15,693 nucleotides of DNA. Source: a virus (Duplodnaviria; Heunggongvirae; Uroviricota; Caudoviricetes). The notes below the pieces were generated by a model. It was not told where the DNA came from and did no database searches. It saw only the letters and a list, made by a program, of their open reading frames with translations. The DNA lies in IMG/VR virus record IMGVR_UViG_2778261355_000012; one strand, 5' to 3'. This document shows positions 538-14,472 of this stretch, one piece after another (within the stretch, counting starts at the first letter, position 1; the number at the start of each line of letters is the position of its first letter). Position numbers and translations under genes: made by a program.

Positions 538-1143
538 AATTCACATAACTCACTGATTTTTGTCAGTTAAAAACAAATTCACACGTAGCAATTTATCAAA
601 AGTGATACACCGAATGATATACGGATCGATACACAGCGCCACAATCTCAAAAAAGCACCAGCACAATTAGAAGGCCGCGAGTATACAACATCAGAAACAG
701 GAGAGGGCAAAGCACGTAATAATTTTCGTTTTTCACAAACGCAAAAATTTGGCGAGGCTGGCGGTCCCGGCAACATGAAGCTACAGAGATTTTGATCCCC
801 TGCATGGTGATGATGCCCATACAAGGCTATTTCATTTCAACGGAACCGGTATGACGAACATGATCGCACCTTCTCCCGAAAACGGTGCGACCTCCATAGA
901 GGAAATGCCTATTCAGATCCCCGGTGATTTTCACCATTCAGAATCTGGCGGGTGAGTTTCTCAATTTCCGCAGTTGGTGGAAATTAAACGAATACAGCGA
1001 GTTAGAACAAGGTGACTAATGGTCACTCTGTTGCTGCGTCACCATATTGATGATCCAGCCCTGTAGTCGCGCCACTTTTCCACCAATGGTGGAAAAGCCC
1101 ACAGCAGGCCGTCCAGCCTCCCCCAATGGGGGATTGTGGAAGA

Positions 1144-1468
1144 ATCAACGGGTTAGGCCTTACCAGCAAAAAAGCACATCAACTGTAACGGAAATCGTTA
1201 TGGTTGCTGGTGGGCTAAATCATCGTTATGGTGATGCAGCCATGTAGACGTTCCGGTCTCCTCAAATCGAGGTTTCCGAAAATATCAGTGAGTTAGCGAT
1301 TAAGCTGGCGAGTAATTAAACTGTGAAAATTTCGTAGTTTGTGACTATCTGAAAGATAGTCGGTTGATCCGGCCTCAGCCGTTGGCTGTTCCCGAAAATA
1401 TCAACGGGTTAGGCTGGTTTCCCCGATGTTCGCCGCTGGCGAATTTCGAAAATATCAACCAGTTACCG
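1144..1468. repeat. direct-repeat array: three full and one partial copy of a ~22-bp motif (consensus about CGAAAATATCAACGGGTTAGGC) at the junction between hpt and the island
   Basis: Read directly: atcaacgggttaggc (~1144-1158), ccgaaaatatcagtgagttagcg (~1276-1298), ccgaaaatatcaacgggttaggc (~1392-1414), tcgaaaatatcaaccagttaccg (~1446-1468). An 8-bp-stem palindrome GACTATCT-gaa-AGATAGTC sits between copies at ~1343-1361. Function (integrase arm sites vs packaging/TerS site) is inferred only. Confidence 0.7.
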
Positions 1469-1753
1469 CCGCAACCGCTCCGGCTTCTTCCAGTGGTAAG
1501 TTATTTTTTCCTTCTCCCGATACATCTCCACGCGGCGACGGTATGCCAGCATTTCCAGAACGCGGATCCGTATGTTGCGCATATCCACATCATTAAGCTG
1601 GATACCATTACGGCGCATCACTTCCGCTACAACACGCACATAATTTTCGGCGGTCACGCTGTCCGGCTGCGTGGCCTGTTCGTCATGCTGCTGGCTGATT
1701 CCGGTAACGCGGCGGATTATTTTTAGTAGTTCGGTTTCGCTCATTCTCGTCAT
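1463..1753 (-). CDS. hypothetical protein (96 aa), last gene of the packaging operon
   Basis: ORF overlaps the TerL stop by 4 nt (coupled translation); no motif recognised; its 3' end runs into the repeat array. Confidence 0.45.
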   Translation of the reverse strand: MTRMSETELLKIIRRVTGISQQHDEQATQPDSVTAENYVRVVAEVMRRNGIQLNDVDMRNIRIRVLEMLAYRRRVEMYREKEKITYHWKKPERLRR

Positions 1754-3420
1754 ACCCCATCAAACGCCGCAAGCCGCTCTTTGTGGCTGTCGCTCATATC
1801 AAATGCAAATTCCTCATGCTCTGCCTGGAATGTGCCAAACGCCATCAGCGCCGCAACGCTCGGGTCTATCTTGTTGGATGATTTTTTCTTGTTCGGCTTG
1901 ATATTGGCGTTCGCGTCACTCTGCATCACAACATTACTCATTGACCAGGCCAGCACCGGATCGCCACGATGCACAATCACCTTCCGGTTAACAAAAACTT
2001 CGAACGATTTCGCCGCCGGACTGAAACGAAGGTATGTTTGCGGGAACGGCTCCACCTCAAATCCTGCCCCCTGTAGCTGCGTCCTCAGGTGCGTGGCGTT
2101 CCATGTATCGAAGCCCACCAGCCTGATATTGAAATTCTCTGCATCCGCCATGATGTCATCACGGATACGGTCATAATCAATGCAGTCACCCGGTGTTGTG
2201 CGTATCCAGCCCGCCTTTACCCACTGGCGATAGATGGCGCGGTTTTTATTGGCGGGGTTCTGTAGCTGAAATTCCGGCAGATAGTGACGGGAAACCAGCA
2301 TAATCTTTTTACCGACCGGAAAGGCATAGCACACGCTGGAAATATCGCTGGTTGATGATAAGTCCAGCCCCGCGTAGCACTCCTGACCGTATAAATCCGC
2401 CTCCGCGAACGTTCCGGCGCACTCCGCCCATGCACCGTTACCCATCCACGGTGTAGCCCCCTGACACCAGATATTGAATCGCTTGGTGAGCATTTCCACC
2501 CACTGCGACGGAATACCCCGCGCTTTCTGGATGGTTGAGGCCAGTTTTTCACGATCGACGGAAACATCGATATTGGGATTCGCCTTTATCCACATCGCCG
2601 GCTCGTCAACCTCGCTTTCATCATCCAGCTCGTAAATCAGCACGAACATGGATTCGTTCACCTCTTCACCATCCAGTATCTGGCAGCAATAGTCATAGTG
2701 TTGTTTACAGGCTGAAACAACGTTGCTCCCCGATGTGGTGATGGCAAATAACAGCCCCTCCGGACGCGCCCCCATTCCCAGTTCAAGCGCGGAATAAACC
2801 CCGTTGTCAGGGTGCAGGTGATATTCATCCACAATGGCAAGACTCGGGTTTGTACCTTCAATGGTTGCCGCTTTTGCTGCCAGTGGCTTTAACAGGCTGT
2901 TGGTTTTCGGGTGTATCACCTTGTGTGTCTGAATATTTACCCGCTTTCGTAACGGTCGGGATAAAAGGCACATCTGACGCGCATCATCAAACACGATCCG
3001 CGCCTGATCACGACTCACGGCGGCGGTGTAAATATCCTGCTGCCCGTTTTCCATAACCAGAAACCAGTTAGCCAGGATAGCGGCGACCGTGGATTTGGCA
3101 TTTTTTCGCGGCACTTCAATGAATGCGCTGGTGTATTTGCGCCGTCCGGTGGCCTTAACCTTAAAGCCCAGGATGCACGCAAAGGCGAACTGCTGCCACG
3201 GCTCCAGCTCAATGGGGCTACCGCGCATTGCGCCTTTTACGTGCGGACACACCCTGGAAAAGGCAATAAACCGCTCCACGACCTCCGGATCGAACGTGTA
3301 AAGGGGGTTTTCAAGGTCAGAAAAATACCGTTTAACGGCCTGTTTCAGTCGTTTACAGGCCGTAATTTTGCCGTTTTTTACGCCTTCTGCGTACTCATGC
3401 CAGGCGGTCAAGCTCGTCAT
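1750..3420 (-). CDS. terminase large subunit (TerL)
   Basis: 556-aa product with the overall organisation of phage large terminases (N-terminal ATPase, C-terminal nuclease) by recollection; sits after TerS and HNH; overlaps TerS 3' end. Confidence 0.9.
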   Translation of the reverse strand: MTSLTAWHEYAEGVKNGKITACKRLKQAVKRYFSDLENPLYTFDPEVVERFIAFSRVCPHVKGAMRGSPIELEPWQQFAFACILGFKVKATGRRKYTSAFIEVPRKNAKSTVAAILANWFLVMENGQQDIYTAAVSRDQARIVFDDARQMCLLSRPLRKRVNIQTHKVIHPKTNSLLKPLAAKAATIEGTNPSLAIVDEYHLHPDNGVYSALELGMGARPEGLLFAITTSGSNVVSACKQHYDYCCQILDGEEVNESMFVLIYELDDESEVDEPAMWIKANPNIDVSVDREKLASTIQKARGIPSQWVEMLTKRFNIWCQGATPWMGNGAWAECAGTFAEADLYGQECYAGLDLSSTSDISSVCYAFPVGKKIMLVSRHYLPEFQLQNPANKNRAIYRQWVKAGWIRTTPGDCIDYDRIRDDIMADAENFNIRLVGFDTWNATHLRTQLQGAGFEVEPFPQTYLRFSPAAKSFEVFVNRKVIVHRGDPVLAWSMSNVVMQSDANANIKPNKKKSSNKIDPSVAALMAFGTFQAEHEEFAFDMSDSHKERLAAFDGV

Positions 3421-3751
3421 CTTCCTCTGTTTCCGGTGGATTTCTGCGGCGGCTTACCGGGTCAAAACCCAGCAAAGAAGCCATTTTGATCATTATTCTT
3501 TCAGCGTCAGCCTTTGCGCTCAGGGCGGGGTTTCTGCTCTCGCTGCCCTGACTGTTAACAATGCTGAACCCGCGCGTGGCAAGGTCTTCGACGGCTTTGC
3601 GGTATATGGAGTAGTTAACGCAATACAGCTCCAGATTGCTCCAGTCGGCGGGGGTAAGGTCTTCCCGTCCGGAAAGCTGGCGCGATTTTTCCTTCCACTG
3701 CCTGACCGCGATTTCATCCAGGTAAGCGGGGGCTTTTGGTGGTCTTGCCAT
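3395..3751 (-). CDS. terminase small subunit (P27-family-like TerS)
   Basis: Track ORF 3395..3892 trimmed to internal ATG at 3751 (MARPPKAPAYLDEIAVRQWKEK...), an N-terminus typical of P27-type small terminases; placed immediately upstream of TerL. Confidence 0.7.
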   Translation of the reverse strand: MARPPKAPAYLDEIAVRQWKEKSRQLSGREDLTPADWSNLELYCVNYSIYRKAVEDLATRGFSIVNSQGSESRNPALSAKADAERIMIKMASLLGFDPVSRRRNPPETEEDDELDRLA

Positions 3752-4039
3752 GTTCTTTTTTCGCCCAATTATTTTCAAAAAAATTCCCGTGCACAAAAAT
3801 TTGAGGAGGCGGTCGGTGTCCGGCAGGGACGGTTTCGTCCTGAAAACCACCCCCACCCCCTCTGACGGCCTCACCAGCGATTGCGACAACATTCCATGAT
3901 CTCGCGGTCACGGTCGGTTAATTGCTTCGCTGTGGTGCGTTCTGTGCGCCCTGTCCTGTTGGCTTTGTGCCCTGTCTCCTGTGTCTTCCATAAGTCACGC
4001 TGCCTTATCAGTCCACGTATCAGCCTGGTTTGCTCCTGT
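3752..4039. other. non-coding gap between HNH and TerS with a palindrome GGACGgtttCGTCC (~3827-3840) and a C/G-rich tract ccacccccaccccctc (~3847-3862); candidate cos/packaging site
   Basis: No credible ORF fills the gap (track ORFs here are antisense shadows). Position between HNH and TerS parallels cos placement in HK97-like phages. Inference only. Confidence 0.35.
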
Positions 4040-4480
4040 TCAGTCATCATCGCCATACATCCAGTCGTTACGGTGTGCTGCCCGTTCTTCCTGCTCGCGA
4101 TACATGCCCGCCTTACGGTTCGCTTTCGTGGCGGGATCTTCCCGTGTCGTCTTACGGTTGTGGCACGTCTGGCACAATGCCTGGTGGTTCCACTCAGGCC
4201 AGAAGAGAACATCACCGCCGCCATTGATGGGGATGATGTGATCCACCACAAGAGCTGGCGTATAAATCCCCTTAGCCAGACAACGCACGCATAACGGGTT
4301 TTTGCTCAGGTACAGGGCGCGGTATTTGTCCCACTGTCGGGAATACCCGCGCGCGCGGCGGTGTCCCCGTCTGGCATCCTCTGCACGCCATACAGCCCGT
4401 CTGTGCTCTTCACACTTGCCGGACTTCACGCGCTTATTACAGCCCGGCTCAGTGCATCGCCTTAATGGTTGCCACGGCAT
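4040..4480 (-). CDS. HNH endonuclease (packaging-associated)
   Basis: 146 aa with paired Cys motifs (CTEPGCNKR...C...C...CHNRK) and the His/Asn core (VVDHIIPINGGG...WNHQALCQTCHN) typical of HNH; start overlaps the connector stop (TGATG). Confidence 0.85.
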   Translation of the reverse strand: MPWQPLRRCTEPGCNKRVKSGKCEEHRRAVWRAEDARRGHRRARGYSRQWDKYRALYLSKNPLCVRCLAKGIYTPALVVDHIIPINGGGDVLFWPEWNHQALCQTCHNRKTTREDPATKANRKAGMYREQEERAAHRNDWMYGDDD

Positions 4481-4782
4481 CAGTACACCCCCACATCACG
4501 ATAAACCGACCAGAGCGCAGAAATAGCCATAGGCAGTTCAGACTGCTCCACTGGTGAAACTGCTTCCCTGTTCTCGTACAGGAAAGCGATGTACATCAGG
4601 CAACCAACACGCATTGCCGGGGTAAATTCCAGCCCGTCTTCAAAACGTTTCCCGATATGCTTCTGGCAGGCTTCCAGCGCCGCATCGGTATACATTTTCA
4701 GAAGTTCGCCTTCACCGGATAAATCATCATCAAGTCGAAGATGTGCCCTGACTTCATCAGGTGTAATTCTGGCTTCACTCAT
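4480..4782 (-). CDS. head-tail connector / gp6-like DNA-packaging protein
   Basis: Track ORF trimmed to ATG at 4782 preceded by GGGAG RBS; ~100 aa, MSEARITPDEVRAHLRLDDD... resembles gp6-type head-tail connector N-termini; overlaps portal 3' end. Confidence 0.6.
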   Translation of the reverse strand: MSEARITPDEVRAHLRLDDDLSGEGELLKMYTDAALEACQKHIGKRFEDGLEFTPAMRVGCLMYIAFLYENREAVSPVEQSELPMAISALWSVYRDVGVY

Positions 4783-5989
4783 CTTTTCTCCCTTTAATTT
4801 CCACAGTCTGTTTCCATGCCTGGCTGAACTCATCACCACCTTCACGCGGCGGCATACCCTCGCGTTCGCGAGCTTCGTTCGGATTCATGATCCCGCTCTT
4901 AATCCCTTTCTCATACGTGGCATAACGTTCGGTGGGTGTGGCGCGCAGTAAATCGGCTGAATCAAACTCAACCAGATAACGGGTACCAGGTACGGGAGAA
5001 GTCACCAGCAAAGCGGCCTTGATTTGCTGTTCGAAGTTCGCCAGCCACGGGCGCATTGTCATGGTCAGAAATGCGCGGCTCGCCTCACTGAAATTGCTGT
5101 AGGTGCTGTTGCTGTATTCCTGAAGAAAAATCGGCGACACGTTGAACATCCTGGCGATGTCTTCAATGGAGAAGCGACGGGAGGCCAGCCATTCCGCATC
5201 CTGGTTACTCATCCCCAGCTGCCTGTAATCCATGCCCCCTTCAAGGATTGGCGTTTTTCCGGCATTTTTCGCCCCCTTGTAGCGTTCCAGTGCGTCTAAT
5301 GCCTGTTTACCTTTCACGCCGTCCAGCCATTCACCTGACGTGATAATCCCTGCCGCCATCATGCCATCTTTCATAATGCTGGCTCCGTGACGCTGTTGAG
5401 CAAGGCCAAGCCCCAGCGCCTCACGGCAAATCGTGACGGGGGAACGCCCCAGAAAGCCATCATCCGAGGCATAGCGGAGATGCAGAACTTCTTCCTGTAA
5501 ATACGTGCGCACCGTTCCTGTACAGGGTTCGGTGATGGTATAGCGGTATTTGTGTGTGCCTGTGCGTTCCGGTACAACACACCCCGGCGCATAAGGATGA
5601 AGTGATTTTGGCTGCCCGTCCCGCCCCCACTCAATAACCGCATAGGCGTTACCGTTCAGCAGGCAGTGACGCATCATTGTGCGTTTAAACTGGTAAGGTG
5701 TCAGGCACGAATTAGGCTGCTCATTCAGCAGAATATCTACCGGGTGACTGTCCAGCCATTCCCGCGCCTCTCTGCCCTTATCATTGCGTACCAGATACAG
5801 GTAACACGGCATCGTGGCCACCGCCTCAGCGATGACAGAAACCGCGTTCATCACAGCAGGCAATGATTCAGCCGTCCCGGCAGAAACATATTCTCCGGAT
5901 CCGGTATTTGGTACACCAGACAACGCCAGAAAATCATCAATGGACAGGTTACGCAGATCGCTTTTTTTACGACTAAAAGGCCACCACAT
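4775..5989 (-). CDS. portal protein (HK97-family-like)
   Basis: Track ORF 4775..6079 trimmed to ATG at 5989 (MWWPFSRKK...), directly after the protease stop (TGA-T-ATG); ~400 aa with conserved portal stretches (FSIEDIARMFNVSPIFL, TMTMRPWLANFEQ). Confidence 0.88.
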   Translation of the reverse strand: MWWPFSRKKSDLRNLSIDDFLALSGVPNTGSGEYVSAGTAESLPAVMNAVSVIAEAVATMPCYLYLVRNDKGREAREWLDSHPVDILLNEQPNSCLTPYQFKRTMMRHCLLNGNAYAVIEWGRDGQPKSLHPYAPGCVVPERTGTHKYRYTITEPCTGTVRTYLQEEVLHLRYASDDGFLGRSPVTICREALGLGLAQQRHGASIMKDGMMAAGIITSGEWLDGVKGKQALDALERYKGAKNAGKTPILEGGMDYRQLGMSNQDAEWLASRRFSIEDIARMFNVSPIFLQEYSNSTYSNFSEASRAFLTMTMRPWLANFEQQIKAALLVTSPVPGTRYLVEFDSADLLRATPTERYATYEKGIKSGIMNPNEAREREGMPPREGGDEFSQAWKQTVEIKGRKDE

Positions 5990-8019: not shown

Positions 8020-8268
8020 TTATTGTTTCACTGGCTCCCGCATTCTGCGTCTTATTTTCCACAAATATTCGATCATCGCTTCCACCTGCTCACGGTTGGT
8101 TGCGAAAATTTCCCCGGTCAGTGAGCTACGCAGAAAATCATGATGATCCACAAAAAATAACGCATCGGAAGAAAGCAACCGACGATATTTTTTTGCTGTC
8201 GTGGTTTCCAGATCATCAAAACCATGAAGCTTTTTATGTTGCTGAACTTCTTCGAATGTCACTGGCAT
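8020..8268 (-). CDS. hypothetical protein (82 aa)
   Basis: Start overlaps the 3' end of the FinO-like gene by 10 nt; followed by the terminator; no motif recognised. Confidence 0.45.
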   Translation of the reverse strand: MPVTFEEVQQHKKLHGFDDLETTTAKKYRRLLSSDALFFVDHHDFLRSSLTGEIFATNREQVEAMIEYLWKIRRRMREPVKQ

Positions 8269-8789
8269 GTATCCCCCTTTGCTGCCCGGCGCTGGCGCTT
8301 GTGCTTCTCATTCAGCACCATCAGCCGTGTTTCTGCCTCCTGCTGTTCCTGTGGTGTCACTTCCCCACATGGCTGGCCTTTCAGGTCGTAACGTGCGCCA
8401 CCAGCTATCAGGGCGCGGTAATAGCGCGGAGACTGCGCATAGGATGCCAGCGTCGCACGTAATACCCCCGACCCGAATGCCAGCCCCCTGACGGCGATAT
8501 CCTGCATCAGGTCGTCGAATATCCCCACCTTAAGCGGCTTCGGTGCTTTATGGCTGAATAAGTCAGGCCACATCTCAGTGAGGCGGTTAACGCGTCGGCG
8601 GTTTTTGCGCTGCCTTTTGGTCATATGCTGCCACGGTGTCGCCCCTGTGGGCTTCTGCTGTGCGTTCTGATTGCCGGGTATCACTTTATGCGCCGATGTG
8701 GTTTTATCCTGCTCTTGCGCCGCCTGCGTCGTTTTCTGCGGCGTGCCGTAAATGCCTTTCGGCTTCCGGTTAATGGTCAGCGTTGTCAT
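8259..8789 (-). CDS. ProQ/FinO-domain RNA-binding protein
   Basis: Residues ~70-155 (WPDLFSHKAPKPLKVGIFDDLMQDIA...VLRATLASYAQSPRYYRALIAGGARYDLKGQPCGEVTPQEQ) align by eye with the E. coli ProQ N-terminal domain (FPHCF...PLKIGIFQDL...[35 protein letters not shown]); basic, low-complexity N-terminus. Confidence 0.8.
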   Translation of the reverse strand: MTTLTINRKPKGIYGTPQKTTQAAQEQDKTTSAHKVIPGNQNAQQKPTGATPWQHMTKRQRKNRRRVNRLTEMWPDLFSHKAPKPLKVGIFDDLMQDIAVRGLAFGSGVLRATLASYAQSPRYYRALIAGGARYDLKGQPCGEVTPQEQQEAETRLMVLNEKHKRQRRAAKGDTCQ

Positions 8790-9493: not shown

Positions 9494-9540
9494 AGGCTTT
9501 ACCTCACAGCAATAAAATAAAATTTTTGCATTTTAACCCT

Positions 9541-9770
9541 TCACCTGTTCACCTTTTGAGATTTTCCCTTTTTATTCATAATGTTAAGGGGTGAACAGTT
9601 TCACAAAAACTATTCACCAACTGTTCACCACTGTTCACCCTTAAAGCTCAATAAATAATCAAAAAGGTGAACAGTGAATAGTTTGGTGAACAGTTCACAA
9701 ATAACTGTTCACCCTATAATGTACTGATATAAAAGATATTTATCACAGGGTGAACAGTGGTGAACAGTTA
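9541..9770. repeat. iteron field: at least 9 perfect copies of TGTTCACC / GGTGAACA in both orientations plus variants, with an adjacent AT-rich tract; candidate replication origin
   Basis: Read directly: perfect octamers at ~9546, 9590, 9622, 9632, 9666, 9685, 9706, 9749, 9759; AT-rich tataatgtactgatataaaagatatttatc at ~9714-9743. The octamer is the one I recall as the phage P4 alpha-binding type I iteron. Confidence 0.8.
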
Positions 9771-9780
9771 TTCCATAAGT

Positions 9781-11595
9781 TTAATTTTTGCTGTCGTCAT
9801 TTGTGACCGATGCACATGATGGCATCCAGTCTTCTGAATCCTCTGTCAGTGTCACATTTGAACGCAAACCGTGCTTCGTTTTCCGTTTTATATACTCCCT
9901 GCCATATTCCGCCATTGCCCCCGGCATATCTTTACCGAAGCGCGTCAGTGTTACAGGTTTACCGAATCCGTGTGCCCTCATATATGCCAGATAGGCGTGA
10001 TAAAGATACCTGCGCGGACTGAACGGAATAATTTCGGCATTACCCACTAACAGACCATCACACATTACCGACGACATGAGATAGCCACAGAAGTCCACCA
10101 GCGAATCGCCCTCGCGTTTTATCACCAGAGCTTCTTCTGATTTCTGCTGCTCATACAGCAGGCGTTTAGCTTCGTCCTGGTCAGAAAAACGAGTAAGCAG
10201 ATGGCGAATCACAACCGCCAGCTCTCCTTCTATTTTTTCTGCCAGCATGGGGTCGCGCTCGTTCTCCGGTACAACCTCCGAAAAATTGAATATCACCCGA
10301 CGACGTGAGATCCCCCCGCTGCGGTCACTGAATGACATGGCGTTATTGTTCACCGCCAGCACGACCGCCTGAATGCGTGTTGAGTAGGGGGCTTTATGCT
10401 TCGGGTCGATTGCCACCTTGTCACCGCCTGTAATGGCCTTAATTCCTGCGCCATCACCAGCGTAGCGGGTCATATCCGGCATGATAATCAGCGAAAAGCC
10501 AACCACTAACGCGCGTTCCCTTGCATCTTCCAGCGCCTTCATGCTTGCCGATACTGTGTTGGCCTTACCCGCCAGCATGGTGCAAATCTCCGCCATCACG
10601 CTTTTACCACTTCCCCCTGGACCTGTTACCTCAATGAATAACTGCCAGTCGTACCGGTTCGCCAGCACCATGAATAATGCAGCCAGCACGCGATCCGTCT
10701 TGCGGTCATTCTCTGCCACCGAGCGGCGTAACCACTTCCAGAAATTCGGCGCATGTGTTGCCAGCGTTTCCCCCTCTGCTGGTGGGCTGAAAGGTAATTC
10801 ACTGGCAATTAACAACCAGTCGTTTTTGTTATGCTCCCGAAAATTACCTGTTCTGGTATCAAATACCCCGTTACTGAATCCAATCAGGTTACGGGCTGTA
10901 TTCCCCATTACAGGCAAACTTAACTTCATGGTATCGACCGCCGATTTAATGGCGTTCTGCGAATAGCTGATCTCCGCATCAATGAAAATCTGCGCCATAG
11001 CACGCTGTAACTCTTTATCCTGAATCGGCTCCCATACAACGCCGTTGTAATGGTGAACAGTGTCAGAGTCGGCATGAATCGCCAGTTCACCGCCATAATG
11101 TGCCAGGAGAACTTCGCCGCGCTGGCTTGCTCCCATCTGGTTAAGCGCCAGTGGTGCGGCGCTGTCTTCTGTTTTTTTCTTAACAGGAAGCTGAATCACC
11201 AGACCATCAGAAAGATTCTGGCGCTCACGGGCCAGATATTCGCGCCAGTTCTGCACCTCCTGGCCGTGCATACCCTCAGGATAAAAATTTGCATCCTGTA
11301 CGCCTGCCGCCGCCAGCTTCTGACCAATCGCCTTTATCATTACTGGCGCAAGATATCCGGCCCTGAATATGCGCACGGATTTTCTGCCTTCCGGCACAAT
11401 TTGCAGCTTATCCAGTTCGGATAACTGCTGCTCCCCAAGCCACACAGGAGGCTCATTATCTCCGGCCATACGCGCGTCATGTTCCTGCCATTGTTTTGCG
11501 TGTGACCAGGCATCACTACCCGCAAAAATAATGACTTCTGTTTCTTTGTGTTTTATGCCGCGTAACTGCTGTTTTACGTTCGGTGCCAGTTTCAT
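9781..11595 (-). CDS. replication initiator with primase/helicase-type NTPase domain (P4 alpha-like / D5-family)
   Basis: 604 aa; Walker A GPGGSGKS mid-protein; iteron field lies immediately 3' of the gene; start overlaps the upstream 95-aa ORF (ATGA). Confidence 0.8.
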   Translation of the reverse strand: MKLAPNVKQQLRGIKHKETEVIIFAGSDAWSHAKQWQEHDARMAGDNEPPVWLGEQQLSELDKLQIVPEGRKSVRIFRAGYLAPVMIKAIGQKLAAAGVQDANFYPEGMHGQEVQNWREYLARERQNLSDGLVIQLPVKKKTEDSAAPLALNQMGASQRGEVLLAHYGGELAIHADSDTVHHYNGVVWEPIQDKELQRAMAQIFIDAEISYSQNAIKSAVDTMKLSLPVMGNTARNLIGFSNGVFDTRTGNFREHNKNDWLLIASELPFSPPAEGETLATHAPNFWKWLRRSVAENDRKTDRVLAALFMVLANRYDWQLFIEVTGPGGSGKSVMAEICTMLAGKANTVSASMKALEDARERALVVGFSLIIMPDMTRYAGDGAGIKAITGGDKVAIDPKHKAPYSTRIQAVVLAVNNNAMSFSDRSGGISRRRVIFNFSEVVPENERDPMLAEKIEGELAVVIRHLLTRFSDQDEAKRLLYEQQKSEEALVIKREGDSLVDFCGYLMSSVMCDGLLVGNAEIIPFSPRRYLYHAYLAYMRAHGFGKPVTLTRFGKDMPGAMAEYGREYIKRKTKHGLRSNVTLTEDSEDWMPSCASVTNDDSKN

Positions 11596-11884: not shown

Positions 11885-12112
11885 TTATTCCGCGTTTATT
11901 TTTTTATCGTGAATTTCGATCGCTTTATTTAATTCGACGATTACCGTATCGAGTAATGAAATAAACGCACCAGCAAGATTAGATTCACGCTCATCTTCCG
12001 GCGCATCACTTAAACCATCAAGCCAGATAAGAAATATTTGCCTCAAACATTCACTGTTAGTCAGTGCGTTTTCTGCATGGCTCATTGATTTAAAATAACG
12101 GTCATCATGCAT
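11885..12112 (-). CDS. hypothetical protein (75 aa)
   Basis: ATG overlaps the stop of the upstream 67-aa ORF (ATGCATGA); acidic; no motif recognised. Confidence 0.45.
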   Translation of the reverse strand: MHDDRYFKSMSHAENALTNSECLRQIFLIWLDGLSDAPEDERESNLAGAFISLLDTVIVELNKAIEIHDKKINAE

Positions 12113-12308
12113 GGCGCACCCCCTGACGAATACGGGCGGCGAATACCATCACGCAGTCATCAGGAGATTGCTGGCGTGCTTCCTGTTCGCTGGTGGCCTC
12201 AATGGTAATCACGCGCGGTTGTGCCGTGCTCAGGGCGATAAAACGCCAGATGTATTTATTCAGGTTGTACGAGTCCCGCCCTTGCGGGTGTCTGGTATAA
12301 TTTCTCAT
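12105..12308 (-). CDS. hypothetical protein (67 aa), first gene of the replication-side operon
   Basis: Track ORF 12105..13013 trimmed to ATG at 12308 with GAGGT RBS 5 nt upstream; the long N-terminal extension is Ser/Cys-rich and antisense to plus-strand genes. Confidence 0.45.
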   Translation of the reverse strand: MRNYTRHPQGRDSYNLNKYIWRFIALSTAQPRVITIEATSEQEARQQSPDDCVMVFAARIRQGVRHA

Positions 12309-12389
12309 AGCTACCTCGATACTCTCGTTATCGTTGGTGGTTAGACGCCCTGCATGTGTTGCGAGCACTGCGGGGCGTTGCTCTTTTAG

Positions 12390-12435
12390 GTGTATTTCAC
12401 CTTTGCTTTTTAATTTACTCACTGGTGAAATACAC
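12390..12435. promoter_or_regulatory. perfect 12-bp inverted repeat GTGTATTTCACC-N22-GGTGAAATACAC in a divergent promoter region (candidate operator)
   Basis: Read directly; lies in the ~190-bp gap between the minus-strand 67-aa gene start and the plus-strand 59-aa gene start; TATACT -10-like hexamer downstream at ~12466. Confidence 0.5.
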
Positions 12436-12501
12436 TTCAAGCCTTTTTTTATCATTTTTTTTGCGTATACTGACATACACCAATTTTTAGGAGATCCAGA
12501 A

Positions 12502-12681
12502 ATGGCAACTGGTGCAAAGAACGCAAAATCACAAATGACAACTGTCAGAATCCCACATGAAGTAATGGATGATATTGAGCAACTTAAAGAACCTGGCGAA
12601 AGTACCGCTGGTTTTTTAGTTACTGCCGCAAAAGGCGAGATCAAACGCCGCCAGCGTCGCAAGGCCAAAGAGCAGGAGTAA
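12502..12681 (+). CDS. small putative DNA-binding protein (59 aa, possibly ribbon-helix-helix-like)
   Basis: Track ORF 12334..12681 trimmed to ATG at 12502 with AGGAG RBS ~9 nt upstream; MATGAKNAKSQMTTVRIPHEVMDDIEQLKEPGE... then a basic tail; the RHH assignment is a weak guess. Confidence 0.5.
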   Translation: MATGAKNAKSQMTTVRIPHEVMDDIEQLKEPGESTAGFLVTAAKGEIKRRQRRKAKEQE

Positions 12682-12738
12682 CCATCACCAGCGCCGTGGT
12701 GTGAGTAACTACGGCGCATTGCTATGCAGGACAACACA

Positions 12739-12912
12739 ATGACCGATAAAGAATTGACCAAAACATTATCACCGGCACGGAAAAGACGGCGCAGAAAGAT
12801 AGAGCATGAATCAGAAAGATTCGCGCCATGTGCTTTTGCCCTTGAGCAATTCCTTAAAGAGCACAGGAAAAAGCTCTCGTTGCAAACCTTGGAACGAACC
12901 AAATCTGACTGA
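12739..12912 (+). CDS. hypothetical basic protein (57 aa; alternative start 12724)
   Basis: Follows the 59-aa gene on the same strand and is followed by a strong terminator; arginine-rich (ARKRRRRK). Confidence 0.4.
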   Translation: MTDKELTKTLSPARKRRRRKIEHESERFAPCAFALEQFLKEHRKKLSLQTLERTKSD

Positions 12913-12976
12913 TCACATTGCCCACCAGCCAGCAAATCACTATGATGTTCGGGCTTATGTTTAGTGTTTTCCCATT

Positions 12977-13008
12977 GGCGACCGCCCCCGGTCGCCTTTG
13001 TTTTATGT
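12977..13008 (+). terminator. rho-independent terminator after the plus-strand cassette
   Basis: GGCGACCG-cccc-CGGTCGCC perfect 8-bp GC stem followed by TTTGTTTT on the plus strand; prevents read-through antisense into alpA. Confidence 0.7.
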
Positions 13009-13022
13009 GTCATAACTCCCCC

Positions 13023-14374: not shown

Positions 14375-14472
14375 TGCGCTACCCTCAACGCCCTAAATAC
14401 TTTACGAGCCAGGCGGGTAGGGTTTCCCGCTTTTCGGTTGGCCGACCTATGCCCGTAATATCAGTTTAACCT

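Follow-up and report, generated by a model that had tools for sequence, protein, structure and literature searches.

The locus and its terminal gene

We examined a small open reading frame (ORF) at the end of a genomic island carried by the IMG/VR virus record IMGVR_UViG_2778261355_000012, a stretch of 15,693 nucleotides that is referred to here in its entirety as the window. The first 4.5 kb of the window were 100% identical to the chromosome of Escherichia coli ATCC 43886. Based on the RefSeq annotation of the identical region, made with the Prokaryotic Genome Annotation Pipeline (PGAP), together with Pfam, the island spans about 15 kb between hpt and gcd, with all of its genes on the minus strand. 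It encodes, in gene order, an integrase, an AlpA-type regulator, a DUF4222 protein, a primase, SSB and a ProQ/FinO-domain protein, followed by the major capsid protein, prohead protease, portal, a gp6-like connector, HNH, a P27-type small terminase (TerS), the large terminase (TerL) and the ORF.

Judged from this gene content, the island is a capsid-forming phage-inducible chromosomal island (cf-PICI) with the organization described for EcCIEDL933. The integrase, AlpA-type regulator and primase/replication module of such an element were all annotated by PGAP in the identical region, and Pfam matched all six of the island's own major capsid, prohead protease, portal, HNH, TerS and TerL proteins. 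The packaging genes follow the proteobacterial order capsid-protease-portal-connector(s)-hnh-terS-terL, and the packaging and morphogenesis proteins are 74-93% identical to their EcCIEDL933 counterparts. The annotation shows no tail or lysis genes between int and the island end, and the length of this region, about 15 kb, falls within the 10-18 kb of cf-PICIs. An earlier note, made from the sequence of the window, had read the position of the ORF by reference to staphylococcal-type islands; the island is an enterobacterial one and not of that type.

The same note had described the ORF as a 96-aa orphan overlapping TerL and lying last before the att-proximal repeats, and in its location and terminal position the ORF is as described: at 1463-1753, it is the last one before a repeat-rich non-coding stretch that reaches the island end at about 828. 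Taken together, the comparisons below indicate that it is very probably a conserved PICI backbone gene that closes the late operon, and neither an orphan, a TerL partner nor variable cargo. The gene and its upstream neighbor are as follows.

1463..1744, minus strand: gene for a 93-aa protein (PGAP WP_032199952.1, phrog_1561, homologues, dN/dS); an in-frame start at 1753 gives 96 aa
1750..3411, minus strand: TerL (large terminase), the upstream neighbor (Pfam TerL_ATPase and TerL_nuclease, PGAP), 93% identical to EcCIEDL933 TerL

The ATG-initiated ORF at 1463-1753 has 96 codons and forms an ATGA arrangement with the TerL ORF, which spans 1750-3420 or 1750-3411 depending on its start. Translation from 1753 gives a 4-nt overlap, while translation from 1744 leaves a 5-nt gap. 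The second ATG, at 1744, is likely the start used by the family and would yield 93 aa, because PGAP calls the gene at 1463-1744, the phrog_1561 profile matches from residue 4, and most homologues are 93 aa long. The EcCIEDL933 and Shigella-island alleles begin 13-15 nt past the terL stop, behind GAGG, and the overlap is therefore specific to the allele in the window, where it is probably not used as a start. The overlap reported earlier thus exists but is probably not the functional junction, and the close coupling of the two genes stands. No promoter-like site was detected within 540-1800, which fits co-transcription with the late operon.

Distribution and selection

The protein matched phrog_1561 over its full length (E = 6.1e-55; residues 4-96 against profile positions 1-93 of 93). 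Homologues formed 903 clusters at 90% identity, all of them labeled "hypothetical" and most of their members 93 aa long, and a homologue was detected by blastn in 1567 of 5426 complete E. coli genomes (about 29%), in up to six copies. The label "orphan" is not tenable in view of these numbers. The family is narrow, since an exhaustive HMMER search of 1.84 billion cluster representatives recovered only 34 clusters. A scan of GTDB genomes, run with the single protein where an alignment would have been the better query, returned one locus. The named sources of homologues were Escherichia (including E. albertii), Shigella, Citrobacter and Salmonella. Neither the protein nor the DNA of the ORF matched any of 50,697 phage records (tblastn and blastn).

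The gene is under purifying selection and is a genuine coding gene: pairwise dN/dS (the ratio of nonsynonymous to synonymous substitution rates) among nine alleles ranged from 0.17 to 0.52, with dS reaching values above 1. Selection also acts at the protein level on the C-terminal tail, where synonymous changes have accumulated while the peptide is unchanged. The last 11 codons of the alleles at loci L015 and L006 differ by five synonymous and one nonsynonymous change, and the Citrobacter allele carries four synonymous changes in its C-terminal codons with the peptide kept. The same changes rule out conservation of the C-terminus through a constraint on the DNA alone.

The gene is thus among the most widespread uncharacterized satellite genes in E. 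coli, and it is present in both of the E. coli PICIs that have been best studied experimentally. The ORF itself is an already catalogued hypothetical gene in a known type of element, and its surroundings are of more interest than the ORF call.

Position of the gene in other islands

The earlier note had made its proposal depend on conservation in related islands, and such conservation was found. EcCIEDL933 encodes an 86% identical 93-aa protein (WP_000133425.1; by our numbering EDL933_1795) at the same position after terL, likewise followed 3' by the corresponding first units of the array described below. It differs from the window in that the gene starts 13 nt past the terL stop without overlap, and in that EcCIEDL933 carries head-closure and PerC genes that are absent from the window. 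EcCIEDL933 is the prototype cf-PICI, and no function has been reported for its 93-aa gene (Alqurainy et al., bioRxiv 10.1101/2022.09.08.507074). Similarly, gene c1505 of EcCICFT073, the classical Rpp-type PICI of E. coli (Fillol-Salom et al., Mol Cell 2019, PMC6739421), encodes a protein of 93 aa with about 87% identity. It is the last island gene and is followed by the array; here the place of terL is taken by rppA and cos2, a lambda-type cos in inverted orientation.

The family closes the late operon across islands with unrelated packaging modules. In islands with a protease-capsid fusion and a DUF1441 protein, the homologue follows the latter with a 3-nt gap. Citrobacter and Salmonella islands that have an Rpp-like helix-turn-helix (HTH) protein and no terminase carry a homologue that is 43% identical and retains the C-terminal tail. 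Small islands without a packaging module also carry a homologue, and at one such locus (L008) the cargo, a Q-like gene and others, lies beyond it. Across 80 IMG/VR loci, the upstream neighbor was a cf-PICI TerL in 22, RppA in 16, a 180-aa protein of the Phage_Nu1 family in about 30 and a protease-capsid fusion in 4. It is this recurrence of the same terminal position, after terL in cf-PICIs and after a TerS mimic or TerS-like gene (RppA, Nu1-like or DUF1441) in classical PICIs, that marks the gene as a backbone gene and not a TerL-specific one. The view of the position as an accessory one stands only weakly: the gene is dispensable for laboratory transfer in EcCICFT073, but it ranks among the most conserved backbone genes of several PICI lineages whose packaging modules are unrelated. 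For annotation, this argues against labeling the ORF as an orphan or as cargo.

Two further observations concern the regions 5' of homologues. At L008, which is a small PICI without packaging genes, the stretch 9600-9900 just 5' of a 105-aa homologue is densely filled with iterons, about five copies of GTGCGCAAAA and four of CGATCACAAAA. In EcCICFT073 (locus L017), two perfect lambda cosN sites at 21559 and 22309 lie in inverted orientation and flank rppA.

The array next to the gene

The non-coding stretch that follows the gene contains an array of units of about 48 bp, each composed of a TAAC-N3-5-TGAT core, an A/T-rich spacer of 8-11 nt and a hairpin that differs from unit to unit. On the other strand, the core is often a perfect consensus site for integration host factor (IHF), WATCAANNNNTTR. 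The features of this stretch in the window are listed below.

1428..1466, minus strand: array unit 1; the ORF stop TAA (1463-1465) supplies the TTA of the plus-strand sequence TATCAACCAGTTA, a perfect IHF consensus; hairpin TTCGCC-agc-GGCGAA
1368..1414, minus strand: array unit 2, with a perfect IHF consensus, TATCAACGGGTTA, and the hairpin CAGCC-aac-GGCTG
1252..1298, minus strand: array unit 3, with a near-consensus IHF core and the hairpin CCTC-gattt-GAGG
1179..1209, minus strand: 31-nt patch with a small palindrome (CCATAACGATTTCCGTTACAGTTGATG...), an antisense 30/31 match to Ant codons 50-60 of Stx-type (Shiga toxin) phages
1112..1158, minus strand: array unit 4, with a perfect IHF consensus, AATCAACGGGTTA, and the hairpin TCCCCC-att-GGGGGA; weak matches to phage anti-repressor genes
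828..1111, minus strand: non-coding island tail with additional palindromes, among them TTTCCACCAATGGTGGAAA

In every locus, perfect IHF consensus sites are concentrated at the array and are nearly missing elsewhere; the window has three, all of them at the array, where about 0.03 per kb would be expected. Of 26 distinct units, 85% had a perfect hairpin of 5 bp or more at the fixed offset, compared with 10% in shuffled sequences, and the 75 distinct units found across all loci carry 36 different hairpins. Treated as RNA, the region 1020-1470 folds far better than shuffled sequences (z = -7.3). Rfam contained no family matching the array, and counts of G-U versus A-C mismatches in the hairpins did not separate RNA structure from DNA structure.

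The array is closely linked to the gene. Among the 53 loci with at least 300 nt of downstream sequence, 49 had at least one unit within 600 nt of the gene and 43 had the stop codon inside the first unit; the junction between the stop and unit 1 is also present in EcCIEDL933, EcCICFT073 and L008. Arrays comprised one to seven units, with none in a few loci, and further examples were located at L003 14756-15182, L017 22655-22890, L008 10315-10600 and L006 10255-10700. At L008, the array is followed by 2.3 kb of cargo before att, and this separation indicates that it is the gene, and not att, with which the array moves; on the same ground we rejected the array as an arm of attP. We rejected the array as the cos site of the island, because it contains no lambda-type cosN and both cosN copies of EcCICFT073 lie 5' of the gene. 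The cos of cf-PICIs is expected between hnh and terS.

Homology of the units to anti-repressor genes

When the array was compared with phage records, all of the short matches fell inside anti-repressor-type genes or at positions without informative annotation. Read in the direction of the late operon, the matches at all five loci examined ran antisense to the phage gene. Unit 3 of the window is about 82-87% identical over 45-55 nt to codons 41-57 of lambdoid Roi/Ant genes in PhiR49_2, HK75, HK140 and Stx phages, and it also matches these codons in HK620 and the known PICI helper Kapi1. Unit 2 of EcCIEDL933 matches the same codons, 41-57, of phiP27 Ant and carries the hairpin of that allele, CAGCCATTGGCGG, not CCTCAATTTGAGG. 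The patch at 1179-1209 of the window corresponds to an unrelated Ant of Stx phages; 236 phage records matched it in the 95-99% identity band, every sampled one was of the Stx-Ant type, and by this sampling most of the 236 appear to be of that kind. A patch in L008 matches the KilA-N gene of a Salmonella phage.

One precedent is the roi gene of HK022. Clerget and Boccard are said to have reported in 1996 that HK022 Roi binds a site inside its own gene, beside an IHF site. The array units, which are homologous to codons 41-57 of the roi family, look like multiplied copies of such intragenic Roi/IHF-type sites. As in HK022, the gene for a putative DNA- or RNA-binding protein lies next to an IHF site beside a palindrome. 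The differences are that the PICI protein is unrelated to Roi and that the units are multiplied, non-coding and antisense to roi with respect to the late operon, with many different palindromes. No similarity of the ORF protein to Roi, Ant or KilA-N proteins was found.

A second parallel, by analogy only, is the FinP/FinO antisense control of F-like plasmids. The island encodes a ProQ/FinO-domain protein, and the array, if transcribed with the late operon, would be a stem-loop RNA antisense to the anti-repressor mRNAs of helper phages. This ProQ/FinO-domain protein (8259-8789, minus strand) is kept in most of the PICI lineages examined (L005-L012) and may serve the structured 3' array as an RNA chaperone.

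Features of the protein

The protein has a mass of 11.3 kDa and a pI of 10.1. Its N-terminal third is acidic (pI 4.9), and its C-terminal two thirds are strongly basic, with 17 K/R in 62 residues. The overall layout is an acidic N-terminal helix, a flexible linker rich in Q, E, T and P, and a basic helix-loop-long-helix. The C-terminal sequence Y-x-W-K-K-P-E-R-L-R-R is near-invariant and is the most conserved feature of the family. AlphaFold2, run with a 14-sequence alignment, predicted three helices (residues 3-14, 32-45 and 52-82), with residues 15-31 as a disordered linker and the tail left free.

The earlier note had recognized no domain and had called for homology and structure searches. 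Pfam and NCBIfam confirmed the absence of a domain match for the ORF, and Pfam gave none for any of the 14 alignment members at E ≤ 10. The searches by sequence succeeded in finding phrog_1561, while those by structure gave no significant match: the best Foldseek hits had E = 0.78 (PDB) and 0.18 (BFVD), and a PDB profile search gave only E ≥ 1. These negative fold matches are weak, because the AlphaFold2 model is of moderate confidence (mean pLDDT 69, the predicted local distance difference test score; pTM 0.47, the predicted template modeling score).

Small satellite proteins of the packaging region include RppA, RppB and RppC (Rpp, for redirecting phage packaging) and Ppi of the Staphylococcus aureus pathogenicity islands (SaPIs), which divert or block the packaging of the helper, and Rpp is often the immediate upstream neighbor of the gene studied here. 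However, Rpp combines a winged helix of the MerR/Nu1-like type at its N-terminus with a C-terminal coiled coil, and it binds TerS of lambda and blocks this phage, whereas the 93-aa protein is without such a fold or Pfam signal. No HTH, MerR or Nu1 signal was obtained for the ORF protein in a scan in which RppA and its relatives were positive, and its model consists of three helices with no wing.

Published experiments on the gene

He et al. identified gene 1786 as the capsid gene of EcCIEDL933. Numbering from this gene along the island order places hnh at 1791, a 60-aa ORF at 1792, terS at 1793, terL at 1794 and the 93-aa gene at 1795. Alqurainy et al. (bioRxiv 10.1101/2022.09.08.507074) reported that mutation of "hypothetical gene 1792" severely cut the transfer of EcCIEDL933. 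Given the capsid at 1786 and the gene order, gene 1792 most likely corresponds to the ORF of 60 aa that separates hnh from terS, in the cos region, and not to the 93-aa gene; the transfer defect may be a cis effect on cos. The 60-aa ORF of EcCIEDL933 is homologous to 3871-4056 of the window.

For EcCICFT073, we mapped the primers of Table S5 of PMC6739421 onto CFT073 and found that rppA is c1503 and that the 93-aa gene is c1505, cloned in pBAD18 as pJP2220. Among the cloned EcCICFT073 genes, only c1503 inhibited lambda (PMC6739421), and c1505 was apparently among the clones without inhibition. The deletion c1504-07::cat corresponds to L017 22104-23001 and removes the gene together with cos2 and all of the array. 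JP13413, the strain that serves as the "wt" reference in transfer assays, has this deletion. The cosN at 22309, between rppA and the gene and within the deletion, is presumably the non-essential cos2. Since JP13413 lacks both the gene and the array and still transfers, neither is required for transfer by lambda or phi80.

The gene has thus been treated as dispensable filler that is deleted to make room for markers, and standard laboratory constructs lack it together with the array. Because lambda is without roi, a role that depends on the helper would escape such assays. These observations point to a layer of satellite-helper interaction that transfer assays with lambda or phi80 would not detect.

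Possible functions of the gene and the array

The explanation that we favor, though only tentatively, is that the protein may be a small nucleic-acid-binding factor acting on the adjacent array. It would bind either the DNA of the array, together with IHF, or the 3' untranslated RNA of the late transcript, and its role would be to tune the relationship between island and helper and not to build or fill capsids. The association with the array is suggested by the tight linkage, by the basic C-terminal half with its invariant tail, and by the array being the only neighboring feature that is shared across islands. A tuning role, as opposed to a capsid role, would fit the observation that EcCICFT073 still transfers after both the gene and the array have been deleted.

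Several points weigh against this explanation. No canonical fold for binding DNA or RNA is apparent in the predicted structure, which is of moderate confidence (pLDDT 69), and no significant relatives were found with Foldseek, PDB or Pfam. The linkage is strong but not obligatory: about 10 of the 53 loci differ right after the stop codon, and 4 of the 53 are without a unit within 600 nt. The hairpin sequences vary, unlike what would be expected for the targets of one sequence-specific binder, and the IHF motif may in some measure have arisen as a side effect of I-N-x-L, a coding motif of the presumed source anti-repressor genes. Finally, the gene and the array could be two independent elements that share the end of an operon.

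In a more specific version of this explanation, which we consider rather unlikely in its full form, enterobacterial PICIs would share a module for sensing or taming the helper, made up of the gene and the array. Copies of intragenic anti-repressor sites (roi, ant and kilA-N alleles taken from various helpers) would serve as IHF-assisted operator decoys that capture Roi or Ant, or as a 3' untranslated antisense RNA directed against their mRNAs, with the 93-aa protein as a dedicated cofactor. In the RNA form of this module, the ProQ/FinO-domain protein would possibly assist the antisense-RNA array.

An equally doubtful alternative is that the protein is an accessory of packaging or head completion, working with the terminase, a TerS-like protein or the portal in cos recognition, translocation or head closure. 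The gene lies nearly always directly after a packaging-specificity gene (TerL, RppA, Nu1-like or DUF1441), often with gaps of 3-17 nt, and it presumably shares the transcript of the late operon, since no promoter-like site was found in 540-1800; a C-terminal peptide that does not vary is also typical of a docking motif. The small gene that directly follows the large terminase gene of lambda encodes gpW, a head-completion protein, and in a CFT073 prophage a gpW-type "head-tail joining protein" follows terL. The resemblance to gpW is limited to position, as there is no similarity in sequence or predicted fold, and the PICI gene is also present, and dispensable, in islands that use complete helper heads. 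Moreover, proteins that are 75-90% identical serve unrelated machines, namely an island's own HK97/P27-type TerS, TerL and HNH in some cases and a lambda-type helper terminase with Rpp in others, and the family also occurs in islands without packaging genes. EcCICFT073 without the gene was still packaged and transferred, and by the numbering given above the gene is not among the packaging genes of EcCIEDL933 whose mutation abolished transfer. No homologue exists in true phages, as judged from the 50,697 records.

The earlier note had proposed that effects on helper reproduction be examined, and cargo at the 3' end of the island that acts in helper interference, anti-phage defense or competition between satellites would be of this kind. 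We regard this as improbable to about the same degree as a packaging role. Immune systems have been reported in the variable regions that border the packaging module of PICIs, transfer does not depend on the gene, and the clones other than c1503 were screened against lambda only. Unlike variable cargo, however, the gene is near-ubiquitous and syntenic across PICI lineages, and at L008 the real cargo (the Q-like gene and others) lies beyond both the gene and the array. No PADLOC defense-system profile matched at E ≤ 1. Unlike Rpp, the EcCICFT073 homologue c1505 apparently did not block lambda: a pBAD18-c1505 clone exists, and only c1503 inhibited the phage. EcCIEDL933 does not lower the titers of its helper or otherwise interfere with it. 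A role in helper interference therefore has evidence against it from both islands.

It is considerably less probable that the protein is a recombination directionality factor (RDF), or a factor of attP architecture that shapes the intasome with IHF. RDFs are typically small basic proteins, perfect IHF sites are clustered between the gene and the att end, and in the excised circle the order would be gene, array, attP and int, all co-oriented. On the other hand, the array starts 300-850 bp from the island end, about 2.3 kb of cargo lies between it and att at L008, expression in the late operon is the wrong timing for excision, and an AlpA/Vis-type protein is already present. The Phage_AlpA and HTH_17 excisionase profiles gave no match, and the gene is located distal to int in the late operon. 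EcCICFT073 without the gene and the array still gives cat-selected transductants.

That the frame makes no functional protein and was kept for overlapping cis elements, or as a leader-like ORF that positions ribosomes at unit 1, is very improbable. In its favor, the DNA of the final 10 codons and of unit 1 hardly differs between proteins that are 43% identical, and the stop falls within the unit, where it is spanned by a weak terminator-like hairpin. Against it, dN/dS stays at 0.17-0.52 over the whole gene at high dS, the C-terminal codons change synonymously with the peptide kept, and the length and helix pattern are conserved in divergent alleles.

Other features of the island

The composition of the island differs from that of EcCIEDL933 in its connector region. 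No match to the EcCIEDL933 head-closure protein was found in the window by tblastn, so the pair of adaptor and connector expected of a cf-PICI is incomplete; a sole gp6-like head-tail connector or adaptor lies at 4480-4782, between portal and HNH (window 4480-5989). The absence of the head-closure gene is of interest, since the adaptor and the connector are reported to set tail specificity. The PerC gene of EcCIEDL933 is likewise absent from the island.

A 61-aa ORF at 3871-4056 on the minus strand overlaps the 3' end of the HNH gene and is 75% identical to the 60-aa ORF of EcCIEDL933. This ORF, together with the spacer at 3751-4045, probably holds the cos site of the island. A mechanically called ORF of 302 aa at 12105-13013 on the minus strand is probably spurious: PGAP does not call it and instead places within this interval an Icd-like gene, a YlcI/YnfO gene on the opposite strand and a pseudogene fragment.

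The non-coding region at 9521-9783, just 3' of the primase gene, gave only spurious matches to microRNA precursors in Rfam. It is probably structured and is likely the replication origin. The int-alpA RNA motif (Rfam RF02996) was detected at 14391-14457 on the minus strand, between the integrase gene and the next gene, with 55 bits against a gathering score of 35.8. The right end of the island, on the attR side beside hpt, was placed at about 828, the position at which the match to islands at other loci begins.

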